Positions 4,315 to 47,202 of a stretch of DNA of 47,202 nt are shown piece after piece (the stretch's first letter is position 1; each line of letters begins with the position of its first letter). The notes below the pieces were generated by a model that had not been told where the DNA came from, made no database searches, and was given only the letters and a program-made list of their open reading frames with translations. The stretch is from a virus. Its lineage: Duplodnaviria; Heunggongvirae; Uroviricota; Caudoviricetes. The stretch lies in IMG/VR virus record IMGVR_UViG_2861038214_000003, positions 1 through 47,202 of that record; one strand, given 5' to 3'. Position numbers and translations under genes: made by a program.

Positions 4315-7716
<3,402 letters not shown>

Positions 7717-7773
7717 TCACGCTCCATAAACGACAAAACCGCCCGCAGGCGGTTTCACACAAAACATTCTGCA

Positions 7774-8421
7774 TCAGCGACCAATCACCACAACCTGACC
7801 ACCATCTCCTTCATCTGCCGTGCTGATCTCCTGAGAAATCACCCGTGACCCCACGCGCATTTCACCGTACAGAACCGGCAGAACATTGCCCTGGGCAACC
7901 ATGTTATCCAGTGAGGAGAAATAGGTGTTCTGCTTACCGTTATCCGTTGTCTGTGTGCGGGGAGTTCTGGCTTTCGGTGCCAGCATCTGAGCCACACCGC
8001 CCAGGATCATACTGGCCCCTGCCGCATACATGCCCGATACAGCCGCGGTACCCAGCCAGCCCACAGGGTTCCACCATGCCACCGCAATCAGCGCCGCACC
8101 CAGCACTGCCTGAAAAACACCGCCACTTTTAGCTCCCGCCAGACGCGGCACAATGTGGATCACGGCACCATTTGCCAGCGGCTCATTAAGACGGGCAGAT
8201 AATTCATTTTCTCCTGCATCACGCCCGACAATGCGCACCTGATACCAGCCGTCGCTCAGTTTCTGACGAAACGCCGGGAGCTGTGTGGCCAGTGCGCGGA
8301 TGGCTTCAGCCCCCGTTTTCACACGAAGGTCGATGCGGCGGCCAAATCGTTGTAAATCCCCGTAAAGGCAGATGCGTGCCATTCCCGGTGACGCCAGAGG
8401 GAGTGTGTGCGTCGCTGCCAT
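7774..8421 (-). CDS. I: Tail assembly protein I
   Basis: 215-aa ORF starting MAATHTLPLASPGMARICLYGDLQRFGRR.., lambda I-like; overlaps the end of K. Confidence 0.85.
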   Translation of the reverse strand: MAATHTLPLASPGMARICLYGDLQRFGRRIDLRVKTGAEAIRALATQLPAFRQKLSDGWYQVRIVGRDAGENELSARLNEPLANGAVIHIVPRLAGAKSGGVFQAVLGAALIAVAWWNPVGWLGTAAVSGMYAAGASMILGGVAQMLAPKARTPRTQTTDNGKQNTYFSSLDNMVAQGNVLPVLYGEMRVGSRVISQEISTADEGDGGQVVVIGR

Positions 8422-9062
8422 TTGTCGGTGTACCTCTCTCGTTTACTCAGTTGTTCAGGAATATGGTGCAGCAGCTCACCGTCACCACAGTAAATGGCGG
8501 CATGATTCGGCACCGATGAACCAAAACAGCACAGCAGCACGTCGCCAGGCTGCGCCTCTGTCAGTGGGACACGGTAAAAACCCGTTGCCTCCATATTGTC
8601 AAGATAGAGATTCTGGCCGTGACGCCACCAGTCATCCCCGCGATGAAAATCCGGCATCTCAATTCCCGCCAGATGGTAAGCGTCCCGGAACAGCGTGTAA
8701 CAGTCCGTCACCCCGTGCTCAAAGCGCCGCCCGGTGAGATGCGGCACACAGAGGAATTTATGAATCGCCCCCCGGCAGACCAGCCACCACGGCAAATCAC
8801 TCTGCACCTGCAGCCGCCGGTCGGCCTCACTCAGCCAGGGCAGACCACCGGGGTGGCTGTGGACCAGCGCCACAATCTCTCCCTGCATTTCTGCACTCAG
8901 CCAGTCCTCCGGCGACATCCGGAAATACTCCTCCGGCTCACCGGAGATATTCACGCAGGGAAAATATCTTTCTCCCTCCGGCGTTCTCACCACGAAGCCG
9001 CACGACTCTGCTGGCGCACATCGCCGGGCGTGCGCCAGAATCGCTGATTCTGTCTCTGTCAT
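8319..9062 (-). CDS. K: Tail assembly protein K (JAMM/MPN plus NlpC/P60-like); true start may be internal
   Basis: Protein carries HSHP (JAMM-like) and Cys/His motifs typical of lambda K; position between L and I. Confidence 0.8.
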   Translation of the reverse strand: MTETESAILAHARRCAPAESCGFVVRTPEGERYFPCVNISGEPEEYFRMSPEDWLSAEMQGEIVALVHSHPGGLPWLSEADRRLQVQSDLPWWLVCRGAIHKFLCVPHLTGRRFEHGVTDCYTLFRDAYHLAGIEMPDFHRGDDWWRHGQNLYLDNMEATGFYRVPLTEAQPGDVLLCCFGSSVPNHAAIYCGDGELLHHIPEQLSKRERYTDKWQRRTHSLWRHREWHASAFTGIYNDLAAASTFV

Positions 9063-28990: not shown

Positions 28991-29079
28991 CTCCGAGAGT
29001 TCGGATGGTGCTAAGTGTAAGATTCAGGCTCTCAGGCTTGCTAACAAGAAGTCGAGGATGTTTCCGGAGCCTAACAACG

Positions 29080-29104
29080 AAAAAGCCCCGGGACATGCCG
29101 GGGC
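29080..29104 (-). terminator. Candidate intrinsic terminator just upstream of the holin (tR'-like position)
   Basis: Minus strand GCCCCGG-catgtc-CCGGGGC followed by TTTTT. Confidence 0.5.
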
Positions 29105-29198
29105 CAGATGGAGTGCCAGATTAAGCTTCTGGCGGTATATACTCGTGTTTGATATCGTTAAATCGCCAAAAGTAACAATTCAAACAAAGAGGATTTTT

Positions 29199-29360
29199 AT
29201 GTCTGAAAAAAACAAACCACAAGGTGAAAATAAACCTCAGCACCCCGTGGCACCAAAACCAACTCCAACACAAAGTACTACAGACTTTGCTACACGTCGT
29301 GTTTTTGTTGGAGATTCTGCCGACTCAGTCATTGAACATATAAAAAAACAGCCGAGATAA
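29199..29360 (+). CDS. Small basic/Pro-rich ORF (53 aa), opposite strand, overlapping the end of the membrane-protein ORF
   Basis: AAGAGG RBS 7 nt before the ATG; MSEKNKPQGENKPQHPVAPKPTPTQSTTDFATRRVFVGDSADSVIEHIKKQPR. Confidence 0.3.
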   Translation: MSEKNKPQGENKPQHPVAPKPTPTQSTTDFATRRVFVGDSADSVIEHIKKQPR

Positions 29361-29898
29361 ACATCGCCGCTACCGGAGCAAGGATGGTATACATCCTTGC
29401 TTTATCGAGACTCGTGCGGATTTTCTCATTTTCCAACAGTAACTCTCTTGCTGTATCACTCAAGTCAACAAGGCGATACCTTCGTATAAGCGGCAATAAC
29501 TTATCAGGTCCTAAATATCCTGCATCAGCGAATATTTTAAAGCTCGAGGGCTCCATATCCTTATATTTTTCATGATATAGATGATCAGGAGGGGCATTGA
29601 TCAGGCCCCTAACCTTCACAGATAAACCAGTACATACCAAGTAAATGGCGCACCATGTCCATAGTAATGTAAATGTGGTAATTCCGGCGGTGAGAAAATC
29701 GAAATTAGTTTTCTGTGTCAGCAATAAAAAAGATGAACCAATTCCAACAATCTGAATGTTCAGAAGTTTGTATCCATTCTCAACATTGGTTTTGTTAGAA
29801 AGATGAATCTCTCGTATCGTCTCTTCCCCTTGTTTTTCAAGATAATCGACGAGCTCATCATCTACTCCTAAAAAATAATCTTTAGGTAGTTCTCTCAT
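29329..29898 (-). CDS. Hypothetical membrane protein (cargo between Q-like gene and holin)
   Basis: 189-aa ORF with about three hydrophobic helices; AT-rich; occupies the Q-to-S slot where lambdoid phages carry late-expressed morons. Confidence 0.5.
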   Translation of the reverse strand: MRELPKDYFLGVDDELVDYLEKQGEETIREIHLSNKTNVENGYKLLNIQIVGIGSSFLLLTQKTNFDFLTAGITTFTLLWTWCAIYLVCTGLSVKVRGLINAPPDHLYHEKYKDMEPSSFKIFADAGYLGPDKLLPLIRRYRLVDLSDTARELLLENEKIRTSLDKARMYTILAPVAAMFISAVFLYVQ

Positions 29899-30119
29899 CT
29901 CACCTCCACATCCTGTACTGAAAACAATTTTACCAGAATGTCTCGATTCTAGGTATTCCGCCAGGAATCGCGCTCCAGAAATGAAACATCAGGTTCGCCA
30001 GTACCAGAAACAACAAAACCCGCTCAATGGCGGGTTCTGGTAAAGTTCATGCGCTTGGTTCGCCTCGCGATACAGCTTTGCGAAGCATACCGGAATTGAA
30101 GCAGTTTATGCGTAAAAAA

Positions 30120-30662
30120 TCAAGCTATTTTTTGAGCAAATGATTCTCGCATGGGAATATATAGGGCATACTCAGCAACAGCCAACCAATTAGCAATTCG
30201 CTTTTCGCATGTGCTAAAACACCACTCAGGATGTGCATCATTTAGCAATTCAGCCATTTTGCGCTTAGTCATCCCCCGTCCTTCATACCGTTGCCGGAGG
30301 ACACTAATCAATCCAGGATGCTCTGCCAGCACCTCACTTATGACTCTATCAATACATAACGCCTCTGCATCAGTACAATGCGCCAGCCAGATCTTTTGCT
30401 TGCCATTGATCATCTCTCGCAAAAACGCTTCCAGCTCAGGTTTCTCTATTCCCGCTTTTTTCATCCTGCGCAGGGCTTCATTGACGGCTGTTTTCGTCAA
30501 TTTTTTGGATGCCAGCAACTGGTTAAACATATTTCCCGTCTTACCGCCGCCAATATACGACCAGCGCCCCCACATGCGCAGTTTTCCCTGAATCCAGACA
30601 CTTTCCAGCGTGGTGAGACGAAGGTGTTCCCCGCTTTTGCCTGTATTTGTTGGGTAAATCAT
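30120..30662 (-). CDS. Putative late-gene antiterminator (Q-like), assigned by position; start refined to the ATG overlapping the ybcO-like stop
   Basis: ATGA start/stop overlap with the upstream gene; last gene before the lysis cassette; sequence not confidently matched to a Q family. Confidence 0.4.
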   Translation of the reverse strand: MIYPTNTGKSGEHLRLTTLESVWIQGKLRMWGRWSYIGGGKTGNMFNQLLASKKLTKTAVNEALRRMKKAGIEKPELEAFLREMINGKQKIWLAHCTDAEALCIDRVISEVLAEHPGLISVLRQRYEGRGMTKRKMAELLNDAHPEWCFSTCEKRIANWLAVAEYALYIPMRESFAQKIA

Positions 30663-30949
30663 AAATAACCTTCCTTTCTCCAGATTTCTTGTGTGCGAAA
30701 AACACCTTCTGCATGCATCAGGCGTAATTCTTCTTTGGTGTAATCGCTGGTTTTTACCCGCCCGTCGATTAAATCGTGGCATGAGCTACAGGCAATCGCT
30801 GCCTGCATATCGTGTGGTTTTGTCGCTGTTCCGCACGTCCCCGCCAGCCTGTAATGCGCCAGCACAGATGTTTCGGGATTGTGATTGCAGTAGCCAGGAA
30901 TTCTGACGGTGCACATCTGCCCCCGCGCCGCTTTACGTAAATCCACCAT
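30659..30949 (-). CDS. YbcO-like (DUF1364) putative zinc-binding nuclease
   Basis: MVDLRKAARGQMCTVRIPGYCNHNPETSVLAHYRLAG.. resembles DLP12 YbcO as I recall it; Cys-rich. Confidence 0.7.
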   Translation of the reverse strand: MVDLRKAARGQMCTVRIPGYCNHNPETSVLAHYRLAGTCGTATKPHDMQAAIACSSCHDLIDGRVKTSDYTKEELRLMHAEGVFRTQEIWRKEGYL

Positions 30950-31548
30950 TACGCAAACTCCAGCAGCTGCGCGGCCACATTTTCGACTTGTTCCGGAGAG
31001 GAAAATTTACGGAACAGAATCCAGTTCCACAGCACATTCAGAACAGATTTATAAACCTGCTGAAACTCGGTTTCGTCCATATTCGCAAAAGCGATAGATT
31101 TTGCCCGACGCCCGCGGCTACCGTCCGGATAAAAATGTTCGGTGTAAAATCCAGCCTGAATGGTTACCCACTCGCGAAAAGCCTCAAACGACTTTAGCAA
31201 TGCCGTATCCCGGGTTCTGCGTGTCGCAACTGTATTCAGATATTGCTCTGCGGCATCACTCAGGGCTGGCGTGTGTTCCCGACCAACTGATTCGCACAGG
31301 TAATCAACGAAACCAGACAGCAGTTCTCGTTCGCGAGGCGTGATCGCCCCACCGACCGGAGTCCAGTAATCGAATCCCAGTTGCAGGAGTTTGAAAAAAC
31401 GCTTGTGGAATGCGTAGTTACGCACACGCTTAAAGTCTGCGTGTATCCACTCGCCTATTTTGATTTGATGCAGAAAATCACAACTCTCCGGCGTCGCCGG
31501 GAGAAGTAATCCGGAAGAGGTTTGTTTGACCAGTTGTATATGCGCCAT
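30949..31548 (-). CDS. Conserved nin-region phage protein (possibly YbcN/DUF1367-like)
   Basis: 199-aa ORF; TAATG stop/start overlap with the ybcO-like gene. Confidence 0.5.
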   Translation of the reverse strand: MAHIQLVKQTSSGLLLPATPESCDFLHQIKIGEWIHADFKRVRNYAFHKRFFKLLQLGFDYWTPVGGAITPRERELLSGFVDYLCESVGREHTPALSDAAEQYLNTVATRRTRDTALLKSFEAFREWVTIQAGFYTEHFYPDGSRGRRAKSIAFANMDETEFQQVYKSVLNVLWNWILFRKFSSPEQVENVAAQLLEFA

Positions 31549-31820
31549 TTCTTAATCTCTCGATGGCGCAGCGCAGCAGATGCCAGTTGTTCAGGCTGAC
31601 GTATGAAGTATAAATAAACTGGCTCCAGTGTAAAGCCCCACCTTAATGGAATAAAAACCAAACAACAGATTGCTGGGATACAAACAACGCTTATTATTAA
31701 AAGCGGTTAAACAAATTAAATTTTAATGTTATGCAAATCTGCCAGATCACCATAATATCTCATTTGAAAACCGCTGAAATAACAACCCTATTAGGGTTAA
31801 TCATATTAAGGTGAGTAAAT

Positions 31821-31907
31821 ATGGAAAACAACAAATCTGCACATTACGTTCCTTTTTTATCTGTAATACTTTTTGTTTTATGCTGTGCGTGGGCATTATT
31901 TTTATAA
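31821..31907 (+). CDS. 28-aa hydrophobic peptide (candidate small membrane or toxin-like peptide)
   Basis: Strong RBS TAAGGTGAG 7 nt before the ATG; MENNKSAHYVPFLSVILFVLCCAWALFL*; found by hand. Confidence 0.35.
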   Translation: MENNKSAHYVPFLSVILFVLCCAWALFL

Positions 31908-32013
31908 AAATATTCACAGATAAAATATACCCGCCAAAGTTGGTTAAGTGCGGGTGCGTTGAGGATGCCTGACTCATCAGAGGTGGCGAGGGATTTCTCC
32001 CTCGCCTGGTCTC

Positions 32014-32166
32014 TCACTCCTCAGGTTCGTAAGCTGTGAAGACAGCGACCTCCGTCTGACCGGTTCGGATTTGTACCTCGCAGAAGTCTTTCCTTGTTAC
32101 CAGTGCCATCACAACGACGGTAATACAGATGACAATCAGGGCGATTAACATCGTCTTTTGCTGCAT
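32014..32166 (-). CDS. hokD: Hok/Gef-family type I toxin (HokD/RelF-like)
   Basis: Hand translation MQQKTMLIALIVICITVVVMALVTRKDLCEVQIRTGQTEVAVFTAYEPEE* closely matches HokD/RelF from memory; a 9-bp-stem hairpin lies just 3' (31986-32007). Confidence 0.85.
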   Translation of the reverse strand: MQQKTMLIALIVICITVVVMALVTRKDFCEVQIRTGQTEVAVFTAYEPEE

Positions 32167-32314
32167 CACAGCCTACTTACCCTTACCTTTCGTTCAAGCG
32201 GTAAGGTCACTTTTTCTGTTGTGTGCTAACCAACAAACCTCTTTTATCTGCATTAAAAATCGTTATCATGTCATCCTCAACCTGTTAATAGCCTATTATG
32301 GACTTTAGTAAACA

Positions 32315-34144
32315 ATGAGCACTTCCGCATACAAGAGCAAAATTCGAACACTCCAGTGCGCGTTAAAAAACGGTGAATTTGAACCATTCATACAACATAT
32401 CCGTTTTCCATACTTTAAAAATATAGAGCAGAATGCAAGGATCGATTTTCAGTTCCCTATAACGGCTTTAGTAGGAAAAAATGGAACTAATAAAAGTTCT
32501 GTTATCAAAGCGCTATTTGGTTGCCCACATGGTAAAAATATAACTCGTTATTGGTTCACAACTGAAACAGATGAGTTTCCTGACCTAAAACTTGCTGATG
32601 GCAGTTCTCTTAAACCTAGATATATATATGGATATAAAAATGCTGATGGCCGTTTAGTTGAAATACTCCAAGCACGTATCAATGCTACCAAGAAAACAAT
32701 CGATTATTGGGAAACAAGTCGACCATCTGTTGGTGATAACATGGAGAGTATTTCGGATGATCTGGGTGCTAATAGTAATGCAACCAGATGGAAAAAAATC
32801 AAGAAGGGATTGGTTTTCCTAGATTTCAGATCGGAAATAAGTGCATTTGATAGATGTATGTATCACTCTGATTTTAAATTAAGAAAGAAGAAGAGTGGTG
32901 TATTAATTACAAAGCAAGACTATATCAGAAGCAAATCTAAATATATAAAGAAAGCTTTTGATGAAAAGCTAAGTAATTTAAGACTCTGGGGGGCGGAAAC
33001 CATTGTTAAAAATATAACCTTGGCGCCAGAACTAGTTGAGCACGTCTCATTTATATTAGGGAAAAAATATAAAGTCATTAAATTTCTTGAGCATCGGTTA
33101 TTTGGAACCAGAGGAGGAACCGCTTTACTTTCAACTGATAAGTTGAACTATACAGAAGCGTTTGCTGGAAGTGGTGAATTTGCAATAGTTTCACTAATAC
33201 TCAATATTTATTCGGCCAAACCTAATTCATTAATTCTTCTTGACGAACCAGAAGTTTCACTTCACCCTGGTGCACAAAAAAGGATGATGGATGTTCTGTA
33301 CTCTATTGTTGAGCAGAAAAAACATCAAGTGGTAATATCAACCCATTCTCCTGTTATTGTGAACACTCTTCCCAAAGATGCCATTAAATTATTTGTTTTT
33401 GATGAAGAGAGTGAAACAGCTAAAATAGTTCAAAATATAGCACCGGATGAAGCTTTTATAGAGCTAGGGCATGATATTAACAAGAAAACAATAATTGTAG
33501 AAGATAAATTAGCTAAAGCAATTATAGATAAAGCGATTAAAAATGATGAAAGATTAAGCTTATCATTTAGTGTAAGTTATATACCAGGTGGTTCGGAGAC
33601 CATTTTAAGCAAGCATCTTCCCAGTTACGCTGTGGTAGAACGCAATGATATTTTGTTTTTACTTGATGGTGATAAAAACAAAAAAATAAAACCAGTAAGA
33701 ATTAGTGAAATTGCTGATGCTGATTTAGTTAATACAATGTGCAAATATTATGGTTGCGAGTTAATTATCAATGCCAGTGGTAGTAATGGCAAAAAAAATG
33801 AACAAGAATCTAATAGACTCAAAAGGCAAGTGCTTGAGTATGCATTCAATAAAGTGCAGTATTTACCATTTGATACTCCCGAACAATTACTCATTGAAAA
33901 GGCAATTACGCCAAGTGAAAAAGAAATAATTGATTCACAGACCTGGAGTTCTAATGATCCAGAACTGTATAAGAATCAAATAAGATTATTAGCGCAACAC
34001 CTGTATGATAAAGAAGAAGTAAATGCAGAGGAAATTTTTTGCCTCCAACAAATGATGACCGCAAGACTTAAAAATGAATTGCCTGAATTTATAAAAATAA
34101 GAAAAATAATTACTCAGGCTCTTGACCGTGGTATCATTAGGTAG
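32315..34144 (+). CDS. OLD-family ABC-ATPase/TOPRIM nuclease (class 1 OLD-like, or a fused PARIS-like AriA-AriB)
   Basis: Deviant Walker A LVGKNGTNKSS, Walker B with LHP (LILLDEPEVSLHPGA), H-loop VISTHSP, then TOPRIM-like Glu (TIIVEDKLAKA) and DxD (LFLLDGDKNKK); 609 aa, AT-rich. Confidence 0.75.
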   Translation: MSTSAYKSKIRTLQCALKNGEFEPFIQHIRFPYFKNIEQNARIDFQFPITALVGKNGTNKSSVIKALFGCPHGKNITRYWFTTETDEFPDLKLADGSSLKPRYIYGYKNADGRLVEILQARINATKKTIDYWETSRPSVGDNMESISDDLGANSNATRWKKIKKGLVFLDFRSEISAFDRCMYHSDFKLRKKKSGVLITKQDYIRSKSKYIKKAFDEKLSNLRLWGAETIVKNITLAPELVEHVSFILGKKYKVIKFLEHRLFGTRGGTALLSTDKLNYTEAFAGSGEFAIVSLILNIYSAKPNSLILLDEPEVSLHPGAQKRMMDVLYSIVEQKKHQVVISTHSPVIVNTLPKDAIKLFVFDEESETAKIVQNIAPDEAFIELGHDINKKTIIVEDKLAKAIIDKAIKNDERLSLSFSVSYIPGGSETILSKHLPSYAVVERNDILFLLDGDKNKKIKPVRISEIADADLVNTMCKYYGCELIINASGSNGKKNEQESNRLKRQVLEYAFNKVQYLPFDTPEQLLIEKAITPSEKEIIDSQTWSSNDPELYKNQIRLLAQHLYDKEEVNAEEIFCLQQMMTARLKNELPEFIKIRKIITQALDRGIIR

Positions 34145-34167
34145 TGATTCTGGATGCAGAGGGAAAA

Positions 34168-35208
34168 ATGAAAAAAATCAAAGTGTTTGACTTCTTTTCC
34201 GGTTGTGGTGGAACCAGCCAAGGTTTCCATCAAGCTGGAATGGATATTGTTTTTGGCCTCGATTTCGACGTTGATGCAGCCAGTTCATTTCGTGCAAATT
34301 TCCCGCAGGCTGCTTTTATTAACTCGGACATTAGGTTAATCGACAACAATGCCATAAACAAGTTAGTAAAAAAACATCGTAATGATTACATTCTTTTTTC
34401 AGGATGTGCGCCTTGTCAACCGTACTCTAAGCAAAACTCAAATAAGAAAAATGATGATCCACGATTAGATCTATTAAAGGAATTCAGTCGCTTTGTAGAG
34501 CATTATATGCCTGATTTTATTTTTGTTGAAAACGTGCCAGGAATGCAAAAGTTTAACAAAAATGAAGGAACATTCATGATGTTTTTAGAAATGCTTTCAT
34601 CAAAGGGATATAGTGTAGATTATAAAGTAATGCCAGCTGCGTGGTACGGTGTACCACAGACGCGAGAAAGATTAGTGCTCATTGCATCCAAGGATTTTTA
34701 TGTCGCATTGCCTTCTCCTACACATGGGGTTGGAAATACTCCCTATTCAACAGTAAAGGACTGGATCGCTAATTTACCGAAGATAGAAGCAGGAGAAAAG
34801 CATAATAGTATTCCTGATCATGAAGCTGCACGCTTATCAGAGCTTAATTTACGTAGAATAAAATGCACTCCTGAAGGTGGAAGTCGAGAATTTTGGCCAG
34901 ATGAATTGATTTTAGAATGCCATCGTAACCATAAAGGGCATACAGACGTATATGGACGTTTGAGTTGGGACAAACCAGCCAGCGGACTAACAACTCGTTG
35001 TATTAGCTATTCAAATGGACGTTTTGGACATCCAACACAAAATCGAGCAATATCGGTTCGTGAAGCAGCGTGTCTACAAACATTTCCTTTGGATTATAAA
35101 TTTATTGGTTCTTTGCAATCTCGGGCTCGTCAAATAGGAAATGCGGTCCCTCCGAAGATGTCTGAAACGATTGGAAAACATTTGCTTAATATAATCAAAG
35201 CCTCCTAG
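34168..35208 (+). CDS. DNA (cytosine-5)-methyltransferase (Dcm-type)
   Basis: Motif I FDFFSGCGG, motif IV GCAPCQPYS, motif VI FVENVPG, motif VIII QTRERL, motif X GNAVPP; GAGGG RBS before the ATG at 34168 (the ORF track start at 34144 is GTG). Confidence 0.95.
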   Translation: MKKIKVFDFFSGCGGTSQGFHQAGMDIVFGLDFDVDAASSFRANFPQAAFINSDIRLIDNNAINKLVKKHRNDYILFSGCAPCQPYSKQNSNKKNDDPRLDLLKEFSRFVEHYMPDFIFVENVPGMQKFNKNEGTFMMFLEMLSSKGYSVDYKVMPAAWYGVPQTRERLVLIASKDFYVALPSPTHGVGNTPYSTVKDWIANLPKIEAGEKHNSIPDHEAARLSELNLRRIKCTPEGGSREFWPDELILECHRNHKGHTDVYGRLSWDKPASGLTTRCISYSNGRFGHPTQNRAISVREAACLQTFPLDYKFIGSLQSRARQIGNAVPPKMSETIGKHLLNIIKAS

Positions 35209-35228
35209 GAGGCTTTATTTTATTGTTA
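35197..35228. terminator. Bidirectional intrinsic terminator at the convergent junction
   Basis: Perfect palindrome gcctcctaggaggc flanked by A-run on the 5' side and TTTATTTTATT on the 3' side; overlaps the methyltransferase stop codon. Confidence 0.65.
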
Positions 35229-35241
35229 TCCCCCCTAGTAG

Positions 35242-35688
35242 TTAATCGTGCTCACCAGACAACCTCCTGAAATTACTCTGGTAAAATGCCAGTACACGCT
35301 GCATAACTTCGCTTTTCCGGCACTCGCGACAGATTATATTCAGGCGCCTGTCGTAGCGGCGTATTTCTCCGTCTGGTAATGACCAGATAAGGTCAGGATC
35401 AACCACAACCGTTTTTTTCACCTTTGCCCTGGATAGTTTTTTGCGGGCGTTTTGCCAGTCCTTACGAGCCTGCTCAGACGGGAATAATCCGTAGCCTGAA
35501 TTGTAAACATCACCACTGGCGACCAGTTCTCTGGCGAGAGTGCTTATGTAATACCTTGATGCACCGGTTTTAGCCTCCAGAGCCCGTAACGTCTCGCGAC
35601 CGCTCAGACGTACAAGTTCAACAACCTGCCCTTTAATTTTTTCCCGCTCTTCTGGTGTAAATACTTTTGCCATAGGTGCCTCCGGCAA
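35242..35688 (-). CDS. Hypothetical phage protein, last gene of the rightward early operon
   Basis: 148-aa ORF abutting the upstream gene. Confidence 0.5.
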   Translation of the reverse strand: MPEAPMAKVFTPEEREKIKGQVVELVRLSGRETLRALEAKTGASRYYISTLARELVASGDVYNSGYGLFPSEQARKDWQNARKKLSRAKVKKTVVVDPDLIWSLPDGEIRRYDRRLNIICRECRKSEVMQRVLAFYQSNFRRLSGEHD

Positions 35689-36501
35689 TCACTTTTCCGA
35701 CACAATACGACTGGAGGAATCGAAAATCTGTCGAACAATATCCCGGTGCTTGTTCAGCTCCCGCAGCGCGGCGCAGACTCGCTCCCACTTCTGGACATGA
35801 TTTTTCGCCCGACGCAGTTCACGGTTTGCCATATGCAGCGATGGTAAAATCAGGTTATCCGCTTGCGTTTCAGTAAACGATGGCAACGACTGCACAATGT
35901 CCGCCACAGTTTCTGTTTTAATATCTTCCTGTGTTGCAGCTTCCTGTACTGGTAACGCAACACCGGCTAGCTGAGGAAAGGCTTTACCATCTGTTTCCGC
36001 TACCGATGCAGCTTTCGGCTCTGCTGGTAAATTACCGCCCGGCATGCAGTAACGAAATTTACCGTTCTGATTAACGCGAATCAGACGAGCTTTGCTGATT
36101 GCCATTGCCAGCGTTGAAGCCACTTTGCGGGATGTGGTACCGAACAACGTAGCCAGTTCATCCGCAGTTAGTGGACCACGTTGTTCAATCGTCGCAGTTA
36201 AATCGCTCTCTGAAATTTTCGCGACTGTTGCCGTGGTAGTTTCTTCCGGCAGTTCTGCCGGCGCTGGCTGTTCCTGCTGAACGTTGTTATCAGCCACACG
36301 CCAGGTGTACGCGCTTTTATCAACGAAACCAGCCTTTTTCAGTTCCCATAGTTCGTTCAGCACTTCTTCACGGCTGATATCAAGTCGCGCAGCAAGTTCT
36401 ATGGATGTGGCTTTTCCCATTGCTTTCAGTGCGTCAAAAACAGTCTCCATTAAATTTTTCTCCCGGTAAAAATTACTTCGCAATTCCTGGCTGGACGACA
36501 T
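35689..36501 (-). CDS. Hypothetical protein with two winged-helix-like segments
   Basis: 270-aa ORF; may start at the internal Met near 36450. Confidence 0.5.
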
Positions 36502-37219
36502 TCGGACGCCAGCTCTCCCAGTTAAAATTCACCCATCGCCCGCCGTTCATGGTCATGCGATCCATAATCCTCTCGCCGAGCAATGTTTTCATGGCCTCAT
36601 AATTCAGGTTTGTCAGCATCCCCACGCTGCGCATCGACGCTGTCCGGCGATCAACAATCTGGTGCAGCACCACCTGCTCGTTTTTTGTCTCGCGCTGAAT
36701 GCCAATTTCATCAAGAACCAGCAGATCCACTTGGCACAGTTCCCGCAAAAATTTTTCGCCTGATTGCCCGTCGTCATAGCTGGCGTGTAGGGCACTCATG
36801 ACATCAGCCACGGTAACCACAATCACTGTCTGGCCATCTTTCAGCAGGCGATTCCCGATAGCCGCCGCCAGATGGTTTTTTCCGGTACCAGGTTTTCCGC
36901 TGAACGCAAAATTTGTACACCCGGTCATCAGTTCATCAGCGATGGATTTCGCCTGACTCAACGCGTATCGCTGCCCTTCGTTCTGCACCTGGTAATTCGA
37001 AAACGAGCATTTGCGGTGCAATGGCTGGATGCCAGAGCGATTAAGAATTTTTTCCACCCGCAACTGACGATTCTGACGGTTGATCTCCTCACAACGTTTC
37101 TGGCCTTCGGAAAGTTGCCACTCGCGCCACTCCGCTACCGTCTTGAATGGCGCGGTTACATGTGACGGGGCCAGTCTGCGGATACGTTCAAGAACATCGC
37201 CTGTCGCAATATTTTTCAT
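36473..37219 (-). CDS. ydaV: DnaC/IstB-like AAA+ helicase loader (YdaV-like)
   Basis: Walker [16 protein letters not shown], Walker [11 protein letters not shown]. Confidence 0.85.
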
Positions 37220-37225
37220 GGTCAG

Positions 37226-38083
37226 TTACCCCCTGAAGCCTGGCGGGATCGCACTATCCGGTAACGAGACGGTGTTAACCTGTCGGAGTAACGTCTCAGG
37301 TCGAACACCTTTCGGCGCGAACAAGCCCTGGTATTCATTGGCGATGCTGTGTCGAATCACCTGCTCAGGTGAAAAACCCTGCTGGCGGAATTTTTCCAGC
37401 TCCCGTATCGCCCCGTTAGCGCCCTGCTCCGTTCGAATCGGTTTTCGCAATGCCTGGCGAAATTCAACCCACTCACGCCAAAGCGAGACAGAAATCCAGT
37501 TCGGCAAAGCAATATCCAGAGGGTCAAACTTTTTGACACCTCGATTCCCCCGGGGGGGATTTAGGGGGGGATCTGTTTTTAGATCTTTATCTGTATCTTT
37601 ATTAGTTGCCTTTGTGTTGACATCATGTTCAAACACCACTTCAACATCTGTTTGAACACCTGTTAAATTTCTCTCTTGTTTTGTTTGAACATCTGCTTCC
37701 TTTCTGCTTCTTCTGGCCTGAACAGATGCTTTTCCTGCGGCTGATTTTTTGGTTAATTTTTCCCTGACTGATGCCAGATCTTCCTCAATCCGAAGATGCA
37801 CCCATTCCTCGCCGTTATCGCAAAAAAACTCCTGCAAGGATGGTTCAACATCAGCCCATCGCTCGTTAGTCAGACGGGCAATTTTTGCCAGCCTGTTTTT
37901 AGGTATTGGCTTTCCTGTTTGCCAGTAATTGAACATCAGCAACAAATACGCACCATGCTCCTCTGCTGACAAATGCATGGTGTCAGCCAGGTAATCAGCT
38001 ATGTACAGTTGCATGTATGGTAATGCGGCCATAATTGCCCCGTATGATGCTGCCCGGTGGCTTAGAATAAGCACAAACAGCAT
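37226..38083 (-). CDS. ydaU: Replication initiation protein (YdaU-like, lambda O-analogous position)
   Basis: 285 aa, the same length as K-12 YdaU as I recall it; low-complexity linker encoded over the repeat-rich DNA segment. Confidence 0.75.
   Translation of the reverse strand: MLFVLILSHRAASYGAIMAALPYMQLYIADYLADTMHLSAEEHGAYLLLMFNYWQTGKPIPKNRLAKIARLTNERWADVEPSLQEFFCDNGEEWVHLRIEEDLASVREKLTKKSAAGKASVQARRSRKEADVQTKQERNLTGVQTDVEVVFEHDVNTKATNKDTDKDLKTDPPLNPPRGNRGVKKFDPLDIALPNWISVSLWREWVEFRQALRKPIRTEQGANGAIRELEKFRQQGFSPEQVIRHSIANEYQGLFAPKGVRPETLLRQVNTVSLPDSAIPPGFRG
37523..37694. promoter_or_regulatory. Candidate origin of replication inside the ydaU-like ORF
   Basis: Palindrome GTCAAActtttTTTGAC, C5G7 and G7 tracts, two GATC sites, AT-rich TATCTG/TATCTT repeats and three iteron-like TGTTCAAACACC / TGTTTGAACACC / TGTTTGAACATC copies. 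Confidence 0.4.
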
Positions 38084-38095
38084 GGAAACTTTTGC

Positions 38096-38518
38096 TTAAT
38101 GAACAATGACAGAATCGTCGGAAGAACCGCCGCCGCTGAAATGCGCTTTCCGGTAAACGGCTTGGACTGCATCATCATGCGCATCAATTGCCGTACTTAA
38201 CGCTTCCTGCGCCGCCAGTAATGCACGGCGTTCCAGGGTATCGAAGATGCAGAGTCGGTGACGCAGCTCGCGCGGAAGGATTGCCAGAATTGCTGGGATC
38301 AGCTTCTGAATTTTTTCTCTTTGCGTTTTCGTTTCACCTTTCAACCAACGGTGATAGATATTCTTCTGATTGTTCCAGTCCTTGCCTGGAACCAGGGGCA
38401 ATTCGCCGCCCCCCTGGCGCAGATATTCTTCAGTAATTGCATTGGCTACCCATGCCTGCCCTTTTTCGGCTGCTAGGGCAAACAACACTGATTCGATGTG
38501 CTCATGCTTGATTTTCAT
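38096..38518 (-). CDS. ydaT: YdaT-like early protein
   Basis: 140 aa, the same length as K-12 YdaT as I recall it; follows the cro-like gene. Confidence 0.7.
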   Translation of the reverse strand: MKIKHEHIESVLFALAAEKGQAWVANAITEEYLRQGGGELPLVPGKDWNNQKNIYHRWLKGETKTQREKIQKLIPAILAILPRELRHRLCIFDTLERRALLAAQEALSTAIDAHDDAVQAVYRKAHFSGGGSSDDSVIVH

Positions 38519-38540
38519 GAATCATTTGCCTCTTGATGTT

Positions 38541-38837
38541 TCAGGTATGATCAAATGAGGATTTGTTACTGTCATTTAGTTGCTTCACTGACATATTCTG
38601 CGAACAACATGCCGAACGTCGTAAATATGACCAGTCAATATCAGGACGAAGTTCTTCGCACAGAACCTCACCTCTTGTTGCACGTTCAATTGCTGGACAT
38701 CTCTCGGCAGGCAATTGACGTACCCCTTTGATCCATTGATTTACGCTTGGAGGTGATACACCTAAAAGCCTAGCCATTGCTGATTGCCCACCGACAACAG
38801 CACAAGCTTGCTTGAATGAATAGTTCTCTTTTTTCAT
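38541..38837 (-). CDS. ydaS: Cro-like HTH regulator (YdaS-like)
   Basis: 98 aa, HTH ..FKQACAVVGGQSAMARLLGVSPPSVNQW..; divergent from the repressor gene. Confidence 0.8.
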   Translation of the reverse strand: MKKENYSFKQACAVVGGQSAMARLLGVSPPSVNQWIKGVRQLPAERCPAIERATRGEVLCEELRPDIDWSYLRRSACCSQNMSVKQLNDSNKSSFDHT

Positions 38838-38863
38838 CGAATGAACTCCAAAAACACACAGAA

Positions 38864-38893
38864 ATATTAGGCGACGCCTAACGCAATTGTCAA
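38864..38893 (-). promoter_or_regulatory. pR-like sigma70 promoter (TTGACA, 18-nt spacer, TAATAT) with operator palindrome TTAGGCGACGCCTAA (38867-38881) in the spacer/-10
   Basis: Read on the minus strand about 25 nt upstream of the GGAG RBS of the cro-like gene. Confidence 0.55.
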
Positions 38894-38960
38894 TAGGCTG
38901 TGCCTAATGCGGTAAGGGTAGGGATTGCCTAATGTAATGCGCATAGGAGAATATTAAGCA

Positions 38961-39437
38961 ATGCTTAGTGGTAAAGACTTAGGCCGAGCGATAGAGCAGG
39001 CCATTAACAAAAAAATCGCATCGGGATCCGTCAAATCAAAGGCGGAGGTCGCACGCCACTTCAAAGTCCAACCACCATCAATTTATGACTGGATTAAGAA
39101 AGGCTCTATAAGTAAAGATAAACTTCCAGAATTATGGCGTTTCTTTTCTGATGTTGTTGGTCCAGAGCATTGGGGGCTTAACGAATACCCCATACCAACC
39201 CCCACCAATTCAGATACAAAAAGTGAACTTTTAGATATAAACAACCTTTATCAAGCAGCCTCTGATGAAATAAGAGCGATTGTAGCTTTCCTGTTATCTG
39301 GAAATGCTACAGAACCAGATTGGGTTGACCACGATGTTCGCGCCTATATAGCAGCGATGGAAATGAAAGTGGGTAAGTATCTGAAAGCTCTAGAATCTGA
39401 ACGGAAAAGCCAGAACATCACAAAAACTGGAACTTAA
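38961..39437 (+). CDS. racR: Prophage repressor (RacR-like)
   Basis: 158 aa with HTH and AGGAGA RBS; lies between the divergent promoters. Confidence 0.8.
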   Translation: MLSGKDLGRAIEQAINKKIASGSVKSKAEVARHFKVQPPSIYDWIKKGSISKDKLPELWRFFSDVVGPEHWGLNEYPIPTPTNSDTKSELLDINNLYQAASDEIRAIVAFLLSGNATEPDWVDHDVRAYIAAMEMKVGKYLKALESERKSQNITKTGT

Positions 39438-39547
39438 ACTTATATGGTCTGACGGAAAACTCCTGGATTCCGTTATTTAACCCCCCCATCACTTTCTGCT
39501 GTCGCCATCACCTATTAGGTTACGCTCAAAACATTAGGCATAGCCTA

Positions 39548-39576: not shown

Positions 39577-39745
39577 TCCAGCATACCACCCACCCCGCCC
39601 CACAGAACGCCGGGCAATACTTCGAGTTACCAGGCAGTGGTAAGGGGTTAAGTAGCCAGCCCGAGGCGTATGAACATGACGGCGGGATTCAAATTTTGCA
39701 GTGCAGCAGTTAGTTCCGCCACCCGGCGTTAAGGGGAGAGATAAG

Positions 39746-39880
39746 ATGGTGCATTACGAAGTAGTTCAGTATTTGATGGATTGTTGCGGTATCACTTACA
39801 ACCAGGCTGTGCAGGCTTTACGCAGCAACGACTGGGATCTCTGGCAGGCAGAAGTCGCTATACGTAGCAACAAGATGTGA
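39746..39880 (+). CDS. Small early protein (YdaG-like, 44 aa)
   Basis: AAGGGGAGAG RBS; MVHYEVVQYLMDCCGITYNQAVQALRSNDWDLWQAEVAIRSNKM*. Confidence 0.6.
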   Translation: MVHYEVVQYLMDCCGITYNQAVQALRSNDWDLWQAEVAIRSNKM

Positions 39881-39890
39881 GATTCGCAAA

Positions 39891-40046
39891 ATGCAAAAAA
39901 TCGACCTCGGCAACAACGAATCCCTGGTGTGCGGCGTGTTCCCCAACCAGGATGGAACGTTCACTGCCATGACGTATACCAAAAGCAAAACATTTAAAAC
40001 CGAAACTGGTGCGCGCCGATGGTTGGAGAAGCACACAGTAAGCTAA
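39891..40046 (+). CDS. Small early protein (YdaF-like, 51 aa)
   Basis: MQKIDLGNNESLVCGVFPNQDGTFTAMTYTKSKTFKTETGARRWLEKHTVS*. Confidence 0.6.
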   Translation: MQKIDLGNNESLVCGVFPNQDGTFTAMTYTKSKTFKTETGARRWLEKHTVS

Positions 40047-40531
40047 CGATTAAAACGTCTACTCCTGCTGTTCCAGAATAACTTCATAAAATGGGAGTAT
40101 TTTTCGGTGACGAGATAATAAGAACAGTTTGCGCTATCACTCTGATGTTGAATGATGCCCTTCCGTTCTAATTTTTTCATAACCGGGTTACGGCAAGGAG
40201 AAGTGATAATAAGATTTCCTGTTTTAAGGAAATCTTTAAATACAGCGATTTCTTTCTCAGATAAACGAAGCAATACTCGTTGCTCTGGTAGTAATGAATA
40301 ATGCTTTTGAATATGTGCTCGCAATCTTGAGAAGGAAATGGCGACCACGAAAGAAAAGGCAAAAACGATAATCTGAAAGAGCCAAGGTATTTCAGTATAA
40401 GCATTGAATGCGGCAGTAAACTCTTTCGGTATCAGCCAGAGAGTGAGACCAAAAATGATAATCGTATACATAAGTCTTTCGAGTGGCTCGTTAGCAAAAA
40501 GTTTCAACAATGGAGTAAATACATCCAACAT
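40043..40531 (-). CDS. sieB: Superinfection exclusion protein B
   Basis: From MLDVFTPLLKLFANEPLERLMYTIIIFGLTLWL.. (162 aa) it matches K-12 SieB as I recall it; the ORF track extends 41 codons further upstream. Confidence 0.85.
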   Translation of the reverse strand: MLDVFTPLLKLFANEPLERLMYTIIIFGLTLWLIPKEFTAAFNAYTEIPWLFQIIVFAFSFVVAISFSRLRAHIQKHYSLLPEQRVLLRLSEKEIAVFKDFLKTGNLIITSPCRNPVMKKLERKGIIQHQSDSANCSYYLVTEKYSHFMKLFWNSRSRRFNR

Positions 40532-40972
40532 ATCAATAACTCTCAACTGTAAGGGTATTGAAATGTTAACACAAGCTCTCGCTGTAGGGGTATAGCCGAG
40601 ACCACCGAAGCCCGGAGGTGGTGAAATAAAACCGGGCACAACACGAAGGCGCATTTCCGATATCCATAAAGAGTCGGTCTTGTCTGTTAAATTTAAATGG
40701 TGGGAGTGCGCCTCCGGTTGTAAATAACGACATTGCTGTGTGTAGTCCTGGCGGCATCAGTTTTTTTCTTGAAGTTCGGCTGATGTCCGCCCTTTTTAAA
40801 GTGAATTTTGTGATGCGGTGAATGCGGCTAAGCGCACGTGGCACAGTTAAAAGTCATGTTAGTCCTTATTGGTTTGGGTGGGAAAGCCGACTGTAATTGT
40901 TAACTGGTTGCAGTCACCTGGAGGCACCAGGCACCGCATCAACAAAGTTCATTTGTAAAAATGGAGATAATT

Positions 40973-41194
40973 ATGATTGCACATCACTTCGGAACTGATG
41001 AAATACCACGTCAGTGTGTGACTCCTGGCGATTATGTTCTTCATGAAGGCCGGACATATATTGCCTCGGCAAACAATATTAAAAAGCGAAAACTATATAT
41101 TCGTAACCTGACCACAAAAACATGCATTACTGACCGCATGATTAAAGTCTTCCTCGGTCGTGATGGTTTACCTGTAAAGGCGGAGTCATGGTGA
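40973..41194 (+). CDS. kilR: KilR, FtsZ-targeting cell division inhibitor
   Basis: GGAGA RBS; [40 protein letters not shown].. (73 aa) matches K-12 KilR as I recall it. Confidence 0.85.
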
Positions 41195-41364
41195 TGACTA
41201 AGAAAATAAAATGTGCTTACCACCTTTGCAAAAAAGACGTTGAAGAAAGCAAAGCTATTGAAAGAATGCTTCACTTCATGCACGGGATTTTATCAAAAGA
41301 CGAACCGAGAAAATATTGCAGTGAAGCTTGTGCCGAAAAAGACCAGATGGCACATGAACTTTAA
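41194..41364 (+). CDS. ydaE: YdaE-like Cys-rich small metal-binding protein (56 aa)
   Basis: TGATG overlap with the kilR stop; [56 protein letters not shown]. Confidence 0.7.
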   Translation: MTKKIKCAYHLCKKDVEESKAIERMLHFMHGILSKDEPRKYCSEACAEKDQMAHEL

Positions 41365-41438
41365 TTAATTGACTATTCGAAACTGAATTTATGCCAGAAA
41401 TGGCAGGTATTCGCTCAACCTTAATTAAGGAGAAAAAC

Positions 41439-41714
41439 ATGATTACCAATTATGAAGCCACTGTTGTAACTACCGATGACATTGTTCACGAGGTGAATCT
41501 GGAAGGAAAGCGCATTGGCTACGTAATTAAAACAGAAAATAAAGAAACCCCATTCACTGTGGTTGATATCGATGGTCCATCAGGCAACGTAAAAACACTT
41601 GATGAAGGTGTCAAAAAAATGTGCCTGGTGCATATCGGAAAGAATCTGCCCGCAGAAAAAAAAGCCGAATTTCTGGCAACTCTAATTGCAATGAAATTAA
41701 AAGGTAAAATCTGA
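41439..41714 (+). CDS. racC: RacC
   Basis: AGGAG RBS; MITNYEATVVTTDDIVHEVNLEGKRIGYVIK.. (91 aa). Confidence 0.8.
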   Translation: MITNYEATVVTTDDIVHEVNLEGKRIGYVIKTENKETPFTVVDIDGPSGNVKTLDEGVKKMCLVHIGKNLPAEKKAEFLATLIAMKLKGKI

Positions 41715-45671: not shown

Positions 45672-45682
45672 AACTTCATAGC

Positions 45683-45698
45683 TGATTATTAATAATCA
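45683..45698. promoter_or_regulatory. Perfect 16-bp palindrome TGATTATTAATAATCA upstream of xis-int
   Basis: Read directly; sits in the intergenic gap between ydaC-like and the excisionase-like gene. Confidence 0.3.
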
Positions 45699-45725
45699 AC
45701 ATCGGGCGTCAATTTCAGTCTAACA

Positions 45726-45966: not shown

Positions 45967-47202
45967 ATGTCTAAATTACCAACAGGTGTCGAGATTAGAG
46001 GTAGATACATTCGCATCTGGTTCATGTTTCGAGGAAAACGATGTCGGGAAACATTAAAAGGCTGGGAGATTACAAACAGTAATATTAAAAAGGCCGGAAA
46101 TTTAAGAGCGCTGATAGTTCATGAAATAAACTCCGGTGAATTTGAGTATTTAAGACGTTTTCCCCAGTCCAGCACTGGGGCAAAAATGGTGACAACGAGA
46201 GTCATAAAAACGTTCGGAGAGCTTTGTGATATCTGGACAAAAATTAAAGAGACAGAGTTAACAACAAACACAATGAAGAAAACGAAATCACAATTAAAAA
46301 CACTCAGAATAATAATTTGTGAAAGTACCCCGATATCACATATTCGTTATAGCGATATCTTAAACTACCGGAATGAACTGCTGCATGGAGAAACGCTTTA
46401 CCTGGATAATCCAAGATCCAACAAAAAAGGAAGAACCGTGCGCACAGTTGATAACTATATCGCCCTGCTCTGTTCGCTGTTGCGTTTTGCGTATCAGTCG
46501 GGATTTATATCAACCAAACCATTTGAAGGAGTAAAAAAATTACAGCGAAACAGAATAAAGCCTGATCCGTTATCTAAAACAGAATTCAATGCATTAATGG
46601 AAAGTGAAAAAGGACAGAGCCAGAACTTGTGGAAATTTGCCGTTTACTCAGGACTTCGTCACGGGGAACTGGCAGCTCTGGCGTGGGAGGATGTGGATCT
46701 CGAAAAGGGAATAGTGAATGTCAGAAGAAACCTGACGATACTTGATATGTTCGGTCCCCCAAAAACAAATGCCGGGATCCGAACAGTAACACTACTGCAG
46801 CCTGCTCTTGAAGCACTGAAGGAGCAATACAAACTGACCGGGCATCATCGCAAAAGCGAAATCACCTTTTATCATCGGGAGTACGGCAGAACCGAAAAGC
46901 AAAAACTGCATTTTGTTTTCATGCCCAGGGTGTGTAACGGAAAACAAAAACCTTATTACTCGGTAAGCAGTTTGGGGGCAAGGTGGAATGCAGCAGTAAA
47001 ACGTGCTGGTATTCGCCGCCGTAATCCGTACCATACGCGGCATACTTTTGCCTGCTGGCTGTTGACGGCAGGAGCGAACCCGGCATTTATAGCCAGCCAA
47101 ATGGGGCATGAAACTGCGCAGATGGTGTATGAAATTTACGGTATGTGGATTGATGACATGAACGACGAACAGATAGCCATGTTGAATGCGCGGTTATCGT
47201 AG
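45967..47202 (+). CDS. intR: Tyrosine-type site-specific integrase
   Basis: 411 aa; C-terminal catalytic region ..HTRHTFACWLLTAGANPAFIASQMGHETAQMVYEIYGMW..; stop codon is the last triplet of the window. Confidence 0.9.
   Translation: MSKLPTGVEIRGRYIRIWFMFRGKRCRETLKGWEITNSNIKKAGNLRALIVHEINSGEFEYLRRFPQSSTGAKMVTTRVIKTFGELCDIWTKIKETELTTNTMKKTKSQLKTLRIIICESTPISHIRYSDILNYRNELLHGETLYLDNPRSNKKGRTVRTVDNYIALLCSLLRFAYQSGFISTKPFEGVKKLQRNRIKPDPLSKTEFNALMESEKGQSQNLWKFAVYSGLRHGELAALAWEDVDLEKGIVNVRRNLTILDMFGPPKTNAGIRTVTLLQPALEALKEQYKLTGHHRKSEITFYHREYGRTEKQKLHFVFMPRVCNGKQKPYYSVSSLGARWNAAVKRAGIRRRNPYHTRHTFACWLLTAGANPAFIASQMGHETAQMVYEIYGMWIDDMNDEQIAMLNARLS

Follow-up and report, generated by a model that had tools for sequence, protein, structure and literature searches.

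A two-gene cassette of an OLD-type nuclease and a C5-cytosine methyltransferase in a variable cargo slot of a Rac-like prophage of Escherichia coli

The window analyzed here, a stretch of 47,202 nucleotides (IMG/VR record IMGVR_UViG_2861038214_000003, positions 1 to 47,202), is an intact Rac-like lambdoid prophage of Escherichia coli according to RefSeq/PGAP annotation, Pfam and PHROGs. Between lygF, the last gene of the early operon, and the block of NinB-like and Q-like genes (nin/Q block), it contains 3.7 kb of DNA with a low guanine plus cytosine (GC) content, which carries plus-strand genes for an OLD-family nuclease and a DNA methyltransferase together with hok. Positions 31300-35500 were 100% identical to chromosomal DNA in 31 complete E. 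coli genomes, including FDAARGOS_1058, and matched ATCC 8739 at 99.7%; the island was present in only 31 of 5426 E. coli genomes, with near-clonal identity. The RefSeq gene order in one carrier starts with racR and the early operon (ydaS-ydaT-ydaU-ydaV-DUF1627-DUF977), proceeds to an opposite-strand “DNA cytosine methyltransferase” and “ATP-dependent nuclease”, and continues with Hok/Gef, DUF1367, DUF1364, DUF1133, lysis genes, trkG and terminase. A preliminary description of the window had placed the end of the early operon at 35242 and the resumption of the nin/Q genes at 31548, with plus-strand genes and hok between them, and this layout was confirmed by the open reading frames (ORFs) and their coordinates. 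The locus comprises the following features:

35242..38837, minus strand: early operon ydaS-ydaT-ydaU-ydaV-DUF1627-lygF(DUF977), from ORFs, annotation, Pfam and PHROGs
35688-35242, minus strand: lygF/DUF977, last gene of the early operon, PHROG Ren-like family
32231..35216, plus strand: mobile, putative defence cassette (moron) of promoter region, nuclease, methyltransferase and terminator, delimited by a Citrobacter match and GC content
32264..32269, plus strand: candidate -10 element (TATCAT) of the cassette promoter, from conservation of TATCATGTC
32315..34144, plus strand: OLD-family ABC-ATPase/Toprim nuclease of 609 amino acids (Pfam AAA_15, AAA_21 and SMC_N; PADLOC; AlphaFold2)
34168..35208, plus strand: C5-cytosine DNA methyltransferase with an alternative GTG start at 34144 (PF00145, 5e-61; TIGR00675)
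35197..35216, both strands: palindrome AAAGCCTCCTAGGAGGCTTT, a perfect 20-mer that includes the methyltransferase stop codon, putative cassette terminator (folding, terminator scan, identity in Citrobacter)
31929..32192, minus strand: hok cassette, coding sequence 32169-32014 and 3' fold-back/terminator region (PF01848, 1e-21; ~90% identity to hokD loci)
31821..31907, plus strand: ORF of a 28-amino-acid hydrophobic peptide MENNKSAHYVPFLSVILFVLCCAWALFL with the strong Shine-Dalgarno sequence AAGGTGAG, conserved in three related prophages
31607..31634, minus strand: candidate nin/Q promoter TTTACA-16-TATACT (consensus scan, positional conservation)
31582..31600, minus strand: stem-loop GUCAG-CCUGAACAA-CUGGC at the predicted 5' end of the transcript (covariation)
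30120..31548, minus strand: nin/Q block of DUF1367, YbcO and DUF1133 (annotation, Pfam, PHROGs)
31548-30949, minus strand: DUF1367, PHROG NinB/Orf
30662-30120, minus strand: DUF1133, Q-like antiterminator gene

The preliminary description had treated 31549-35241 as one inserted island. Our comparisons divided it into three separate things, namely a mobile cassette (32231-35216), which is indeed inserted, a hok remnant and an AT-rich segment with the 28-amino-acid ORF, the latter two belonging to the prophage backbone. The cassette is 2,986 bp long; it begins 84 bp before the nuclease ATG and closes with the final base of the palindrome. Two Citrobacter loci matched exactly this unit (32231-35216) with 82% nucleotide identity in unrelated contexts, where the cassette adjoins an integrase gene or an IS1 fragment, and in one of them it is closed by the same palindrome. 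The GC content of the cassette was 0.359, compared to 0.492 in the early operon and 0.491 in the nin/Q block. Upstream of the nuclease gene, TATCATGTC has been kept in E. coli, Citrobacter and Morganella with a weak -35 element, suggesting that the cassette has its own promoter. As extra DNA with its own terminator and a deviating GC content, it shows attributes of a phage moron. The cassette flanks contained no direct or inverted repeats pointing to transposition or site-specific insertion, and cassette DNA and nuclease protein were essentially absent from sequenced phage records. An ORF of 59 amino acids at 32129-32308 was rejected as a gene; it overlaps the hok start and had neither a PGAP annotation nor a family match.

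The palindrome at the end of the methyltransferase gene had been proposed to be a perfect and bidirectional terminator. The perfect 20-mer at 35197-35216 stands, with a calculated chance expectation of ~0.05 for a perfect 20-nt palindrome in 47 kb, and it folds well in both senses (-13.8 kcal/mol on the plus and -12.6 kcal/mol on the minus strand; z-scores -4.0 and -3.3; none of 200 shuffles as good). Strong termination, however, is predicted in one direction only. The plus-sense hairpin is followed by AUUUUAUUGU, a good U-tract whose T-run extends to about 35227, whereas the minus-sense tail GAUUAUAUUAA is weak. Because only the plus-sense copy has a good U-tract, the palindrome is predicted to stop cassette transcription efficiently and the early transcript of the phage less well.

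The earlier label “OLD-like” and the defence-type character assigned to the plus-strand genes were corroborated. The first product matched the PADLOC model HEC-04 (1.7e-34) and further ATPase-Toprim models, and it was aligned with 25 homologues of 37-83% identity. All of these share the Walker A motif (G54...K60-S61), D310-E311 and H344 expected of the ATPase domain. Sequence profiles alone did not extend to the Toprim part of the protein; here, E396 and D451-G-D453 were invariant in the 25 homologues and correspond to the catalytic Glu and DxD of Toprim-type nucleases. For the AlphaFold2 model (predicted local distance difference test score 83), the top full-length fold matches in the PDB were the OLD nuclease 6p74 and GajA of Gabija. 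In the second product, the catalytic motifs I, IV, VI, VIII and X of C5-cytosine methyltransferases (FxGxG, PCQ, ENV, QxRxR and GNAVPP) are all intact.

The stop codon of the nuclease gene and the start codon of the methyltransferase gene abut or overlap, and the same order and spacing of the pair were found in Citrobacter, Morganella, Microbulbifer, Bradyrhizobium and a 39%-identical E. coli lineage. A census covered 75 loci, one genome per species, on contigs with enough flanking sequence, within a range of 4 kb. A 5-methylcytosine (m5C) methyltransferase gene lay directly downstream of the nuclease gene in 41 of these loci and, in nearly all others, upstream on the same strand within at most 4 kb, while five loci had none within 4 kb. 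Same-strand pairing thus extends to ~70 of the 75 loci, which represent Proteobacteria, Actinomycetota, Bacteroidota, Bacillota and others and lie mostly outside phages. An intact methyltransferase gene that adjoins a nuclease gene, with this linkage conserved, is the pattern that would be expected of a restriction-modification-like system. No description of an OLD-type nuclease paired with a methyltransferase was found in the partial literature library at hand, and the pair is apparently widespread and uncharacterized.

The position of the cassette relative to its neighbors also recurs. In E. coli prophages carrying the 39%-identical version (positions 6001-8835 of three compared loci), it lies between the Q antiterminator and holin genes, tail-to-tail with Q, and the methyltransferase stop codon is only 10 bp away from that of Q. 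The nuclease of this lineage was indexed in 520 blocks of the contig collection. The copies in Citrobacter and Morganella are arranged tail-to-tail with an integrase gene. Since placement behind a hairpin at the 3' end of a neighboring transcription unit is repeated in these contexts, it points to insulation from neighboring transcription and not to coupling with it.

The interval between lygF and hok was compared by BLAST with nine related loci and subsequently with three closer Rac-type relatives. Homology to every comparator restarted at the lygF stop codon (35239-35272). Other cargo or none was present in relatives whose flanks are 94.5-95.6% identical, and the nuclease and methyltransferase DNA had no counterpart in the compared phages and prophages. 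The contents of the interval, with orientation given relative to the early operon, were as follows:

BL21: empty, with lygF and hok 261 nt apart and only hok leader in between
Other E. coli prophages: QueH, or DUF4406 and a hypothetical gene, co-directional
O157-type prophage: alpha/beta hydrolase, convergent
Phage mEp460 (viable): 449-amino-acid gene, PD-T7-1 according to PADLOC (E = 4e-157), convergent
vB_EcoS-683R6 (record of a Rac-like, trkG-carrying phage): IetA and IetS (PADLOC), co-directional
mip270_05: PD-Lambda-2_C-like protein (PADLOC) and a “cll” protein
Strain L73: two hypothetical genes followed by a hairpin, convergent
EBJ003: BstA-like KilA-N gene (PADLOC), convergent
K-12 Qin: relBE co-directional, ydfV and flxA convergent

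A mechanical ORF survey of 55 IMG/VR contigs that hold both lygF and the leader of the nin block yielded at least 35 slot architectures of 1.05-5.95 kb, and 12 of the 55 had a convergent ORF of at least 90 amino acids. With conserved flanks, many cargos and PADLOC matches to the known systems PD-T7-1, IetAS, PD-Lambda-2_C and BstA, the interval has the properties of a defence hotspot. These comparisons indicate that it is a hypervariable cargo slot and that the slot is ancestral and the cargo inserted, in agreement with the insertion supposed in the preliminary description. Matches to lygF/DUF1627 occurred in 4222 of the 5426 E. coli genomes, and the flanks often matched several times per genome, so that ample homology would exist for cassette exchange between co-resident prophages. 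In four genomes, the cassette and its left flank were identical to the window and the DUF1627/ydaV flank (35229-36500) was 96.6% identical; the combination of an identical island and a diverged right flank is a sign that Rac variants have recombined near the slot. No description of the lygF-hok slot was found in the literature library, the coverage of which is limited.

On the other side of the cassette, the 264-bp hok block (31929-32192) was ~90% identical in all comparators and was matched in most of the 4745 (out of 5426) E. coli genomes that hit the query, marking it as backbone. The canonical leader of ~190 nt, which in the comparators consists of a TAGAAT -10 element, a conserved 5' end, the mok ATG and a Sok-complementary region, was present in 12 of 12 comparators and is lost in the window. 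Here, similarity to the comparators breaks off 23-45 nt before the hok start codon and gives way to cassette-side DNA. The hok start is not overlapped by any mok-like ORF, and a permissive Rfam scan of 29000-39500 returned no match to Sok or any other known RNA. Of the upstream region (32170-32230), a diverged proximal hairpin alone remains (CCTTACC...GGTAAGG, 32206-32181). With promoter, mok and Sok-target leader lost, hok is probably silent or expressed by read-through only, and since cassette-side DNA stands in place of the leader, the event that installed the cargo appears to have removed the hok control region. The segment between hok and the nin/Q block (31549-31928, GC content 0.337) accompanies the DUF1367-type nin block. 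It was 94.6-95.4% identical in three prophages which have this type of nin block and different cargo, and which have kept the start, frame and stop of the 28-amino-acid ORF with conservative substitutions; it is backbone and not part of the insertion. With its polar N-terminus and single hydrophobic helix, the peptide is similar to a type I toxin or small membrane protein; it had no family match. A 20-nt inverted repeat (31855-31874 / 31906-31925) spans the 3' half and the stop codon of its ORF.

The same segment contains the candidate promoter of the nin/Q block. Immediately 5' of DUF1367, TTTACA-16-TATACT (31634-31607) is followed by a 44-nt stretch that has been kept even in prophages with a different nin block and includes a hairpin with a 5-bp stem and a 9-nt loop of the form G-N-CAG CCUGAACAR CUG-N'-C. 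A pattern built on the core of the 44-nt stretch, in which three positions could vary, retrieved 120 viral contigs; the sequences assessed for covariation are mutually related and were selected by a pattern that fixes most stem positions. The free stem pair was pairable in all 88 distinct contexts (C-G 45, T-A 24, T·G 17, A-T 2), and the C/A combination, expected ~12 times from the marginal frequencies, never occurred. In a second scan, the closing pair (pair 1) switched from G-C to A-T. A sigma-70 -10-like hexamer (TACAAT, TATAAT, TATACT or CATAAT) started precisely 12 nt ahead of the hairpin in 44 of the 52 distinct upstream sequences, whereas no other position between -70 and +60 reached 8 of 52. 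In total, the element was found in well over 100 viral contigs, and in the window it is intact and identical to that of mEp460 and 683R6. A second copy of the hairpin was not found elsewhere in the window, and the element therefore does not resemble a nutL/nutR-like pair. The simplest reading of this conservation is a promoter whose transcript begins with a conserved stem-loop. The NinB/YbcO/Q block very probably has its own promoter, as the preliminary description had considered in its alternative of a Q-block promoter within 31549-31820, for which 31634-31607 is now a candidate with strong comparative support.

Taken together, we consider it probable that the cassette is an autonomous defence moron in a lambdoid cargo slot, and that the nin/Q block is transcribed from a promoter of its own. 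Recombination between the conserved flanks, the 3' end of lygF and hok, probably installed the cassette and replaced the hok promoter/mok/sok leader. Most likely, the repressed prophage would express the cassette, which would serve as a restriction-modification-like system against phages, the methyltransferase marking host and prophage DNA and the nuclease attacking unmodified invaders. The palindromic terminator would keep cassette transcription from entering the replication genes in antisense, and the tail-to-tail placement would insulate the cassette from phage transcription. The early transcript, in turn, would largely end in the slot at the cassette hairpin, by Rho acting on the antisense RNA, or at the hok terminator, and NinB, YbcO and Q would be transcribed from 31634-31607 as an RNA that opens with the conserved stem-loop. 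On this reading, the arrangement is an ordinary moron without any new regulatory device.

Several observations weigh against this reading. The restriction-modification role of the OLD-type nuclease is a prediction only, and HEC-04 and IbfA, its closest tested relatives, work as single proteins without a methyltransferase. Given the weak minus-sense U-tract of the palindrome, part of the transcription from the pR-like promoter is likely to read through. The stop codon of lygF is overlapped by co-directional cargo genes in several relatives (gap -4), which implies that the early operon can extend into the slot and that the slot is not a strict operon boundary. The consensus scan showed no enrichment of promoter-like sites in the region (18, compared with 19.7 in shuffled sequence). 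Furthermore, a constitutive nin/Q promoter would give Q in lysogens, and some control that keeps it off would be needed. Searches for such control gave negative results for a LexA box (CTGT-N8-ACAG with at most one mismatch, 31549-32000), for the YdaT box (TTGATT-N6-AATCAA) near the nin promoter and the cassette, and for a RacR operator, since the racR-ydaS operator region and 31555-31720 have no 8-mer in common. LexA control of the Gifsy type was rejected for this phage on the basis of the LexA box search. LygF or DUF1627 as activators of the nin promoter were likewise set aside as speculation, with lygF being upstream in only 28 of 40 loci with enough sequence.

The preliminary description had considered a different route to Q, in which antiterminated polymerase from the pR-like promoter crosses the palindrome, the cassette in antisense and hok before reaching the nin/Q genes. 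Q would then depend on this read-through, and in lytic growth the convergent transcription would shut down the defence genes, by transcriptional interference or by antisense RNA. The lambda paradigm speaks for such a route, since the terminator at the same ren-ninB junction of lambda is passed by N antitermination, and so do the weak minus-sense tail of the palindrome, the continuation of the early operon into the slot in some relatives and the convergent cargo tolerated there by viable phages such as mEp460 with PD-T7-1; the mEp phages have been reported to depend on Nus (PMC11893012). A minus-strand polymerase leaving lygF would, however, meet three hairpin terminators, namely the cassette hairpin (35217-35196), the hok terminator and a hairpin at 31799-31783, and would produce 3 kb of untranslated RNA. 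This antisense RNA over the cassette has a median C/G ratio of 1.23, compared to 0.81 in the translated operons, and its longest ORF has 52 amino acids; untranslated RNA with C over G is the kind terminated by Rho. Among the small ORFs beside racR (39701-41714), none had an N-like PHROG match, the only matches being to PHROGs of unknown function or Kil, although a small and divergent N protein could have been missed. Antitermination in Rac is not mentioned in PMC11879457. Moreover, the nin/Q block has its positionally conserved -10 element and 5' hairpin, and the homologous cassette in other prophages lies after Q, where read-through would be purposeless. We thus regard obligatory read-through to Q as unlikely. 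Nothing indicates that induction silences the defence genes either, and silencing would not be needed, because comparative evidence speaks for a separate nin/Q promoter and because a restriction-modification system, if working, would protect the prophage DNA by methylation.

Two further explanations concern the state of the prophage and the function of the pair. The insertion could have disabled the prophage by separating the early operon from Q and deleting the hok leader; what is left would be a grounded, non-inducible element kept only for its defence cargo, and the way in which the region is transcribed would cease to matter. The visibly degraded hok locus, the rarity and near-clonal identity of the island and the precedent of Rac, which is defective in K-12, would fit, yet the structural, lysis, replication and recombination ORFs of the window form a complete set and are long and uninterrupted, with no frameshifts noted. 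The nin/Q promoter-hairpin element is preserved as well. Furthermore, plaque-forming or isolated phages carry slot cargo in either orientation (convergent in mEp460, co-directional in 683R6), so that the cargo seen here would be compatible with lytic growth, and we consider a crippled prophage very unlikely. Alternatively, the nuclease may function as a sensor in abortive infection, like P2 Old, HEC-04 or IbfA, and the methyltransferase may be an unrelated phage gene for anti-restriction (self-protection) that travels along. Many phages carry orphan methyltransferases, and the nearest characterized relatives of the nuclease are, as stated above, single proteins. Same-strand pairing in ~70 of 75 mostly non-phage loci over many phyla and the abutting or overlapping stop and start codons argue against a fortuitous association, which leaves this explanation rather doubtful. 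An autonomous, insulated defence moron with a separately transcribed nin/Q block remains the reading we prefer.

Beyond this reading, we see a tentative possibility, with less than an even chance of being correct, that an OLD ATPase/Toprim nuclease with an obligatory m5C methyltransferase constitutes an undescribed class of restriction-modification system and, linked to it, that a dedicated hairpin-leader promoter times Q. The pairing may range from Enterobacteria to Actinomycetota and Bacteroidota and may be spread by lambdoid prophages, always tail-to-tail at operon ends. Rac/Qin-type prophages without a recognizable N may time Q by a promoter with a covarying stem-loop and not by antitermination. 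The architecture itself is of little consequence, since it adds just another defence moron to a prophage hotspot; of the by-products, the most interesting is the pairing of OLD nuclease and methyltransferase, which is widely conserved. Study of the pair could reveal how methylation serves to tune OLD-family nucleases to the distinction of self and non-self. The promoter with its 5' hairpin offers a handle on late-gene entry in lambdoid prophages without a recognizable N, and the lygF-hok junction, which is found in most E. coli genomes, is rich and readily addressable and already contains validated systems, could be mined in the same way as the P2/P4 hotspots.

The early operon is preceded by a pR-like promoter with the same hexamers as the experimentally verified PydaST of K-12 Rac (PMC11879457). 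The terminator scan revealed no convincing intrinsic terminator in the operon interior. These further features of the window are:

38864..38893, minus strand: PydaST, pR-like promoter TTGACA-18-TAATAT, driving the early operon (consensus scan)
38837-38541, minus strand: ydaS
30014..30039, minus strand: strong terminator 3' of the Q-like gene, in the position of lambda tR' (-16.2 kcal/mol, z-score -4.4)

No tRNA genes were found between the Q-like gene and the lysis genes of the window (29000-30100), whereas three close relatives have two to four tRNAs there; an ORF of 189 amino acids (29329-29898) stands in their place, as it does in one other relative. A LexA-box-like sequence, CTGTAATTGTTAACTG, with one mismatch to CTGT-N8-ACAG, is situated in the intergenic region upstream of kilR (40891-40906) and could link the leftward genes to the SOS response. 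Inverted repeats resembling the YdaT box, with one mismatch each, were found at 38508-38525, at the ydaT start and matching the published position in Rac, and at 45682-45699, ~270 nt upstream of an ORF of 411 amino acids starting at 45967.

The nuclease has the common organization of HEC-04, IbfA and the OLD nucleases (P2 Old, GajA and the retron and PARIS ATPases), with an ABC ATPase followed by a Toprim domain with catalytic E and DxD, and differs from them in its size of 609 amino acids with an extra helical C-terminus. The partners of OLD classes 2-4 (the UvrD-like helicase of Gabija, the retron reverse transcriptase and the AriB Toprim protein) do not accompany it, and a methyltransferase partner is a feature of none of the four OLD classes described. 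What constantly accompanies it is an m5C methyltransferase, in place of a helicase, a retron or a separate Toprim protein. With hok/sok loci, including hokD (relF) of K-12 Qin, the window shares the Hok ORF and the 3' fold-back/terminator region at ~90% identity; hokD of K-12 also directly follows cargo (relBE) in the same slot. The promoter, mok start and Sok target of the 12 comparators are what the window lacks.

The ren-ninB junction of lambda is the same genomic place, with LygF belonging to the Ren-like PHROG and DUF1367 to the NinB PHROG. In lambda, the gap of 73 nt contains a strong terminator, AGGCCTGC...GCAGGCCT followed by TTTTATTT, at lambda positions 40596-40629 (2597-2630 of the compared segment), which carries no annotation in the RefSeq record and which we take to be tR2. 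Lambda has no cargo there and uses N antitermination, whereas in the phage studied here no N is recognizable, the cargo amounts to 3.7 kb and the slot is followed by a candidate promoter. In the Gifsy prophages, the dinI-antirepressor-irsA(DUF1367) operon has a promoter of its own under LexA control, preceded by a terminator-like palindrome (PMC3121763). A palindrome followed by an independent promoter, 3' of the replication genes and 5' of a DUF1367/irsA homologue, is thus shared with Gifsy; the window differs in having no LexA box, dinI gene or antirepressor gene at this place. The moron concept is reportedly that of Juhala/Hendrix, and the bor gene of lambda is also oriented against its surrounding operon. 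As in other phage morons (reviewed in PMC3594210), the cassette is extra DNA between genes that are adjacent in relatives, deviates in GC content, comes with a putative promoter and a terminator of its own and would presumably be active in the repressed prophage. It shows no essential difference from them, consisting of two genes that are oriented against the surrounding operon. Finally, the lygF-hok slot resembles the defence hotspots of prophages and satellites such as P2 and P4 (Rousset et al., PMC9122126) in that conserved flanks bracket variable anti-phage systems, and it differs from them in its host element, the Rac/Qin-type lambdoid prophages, and in its position at the junction of the Ren-like gene and hok.

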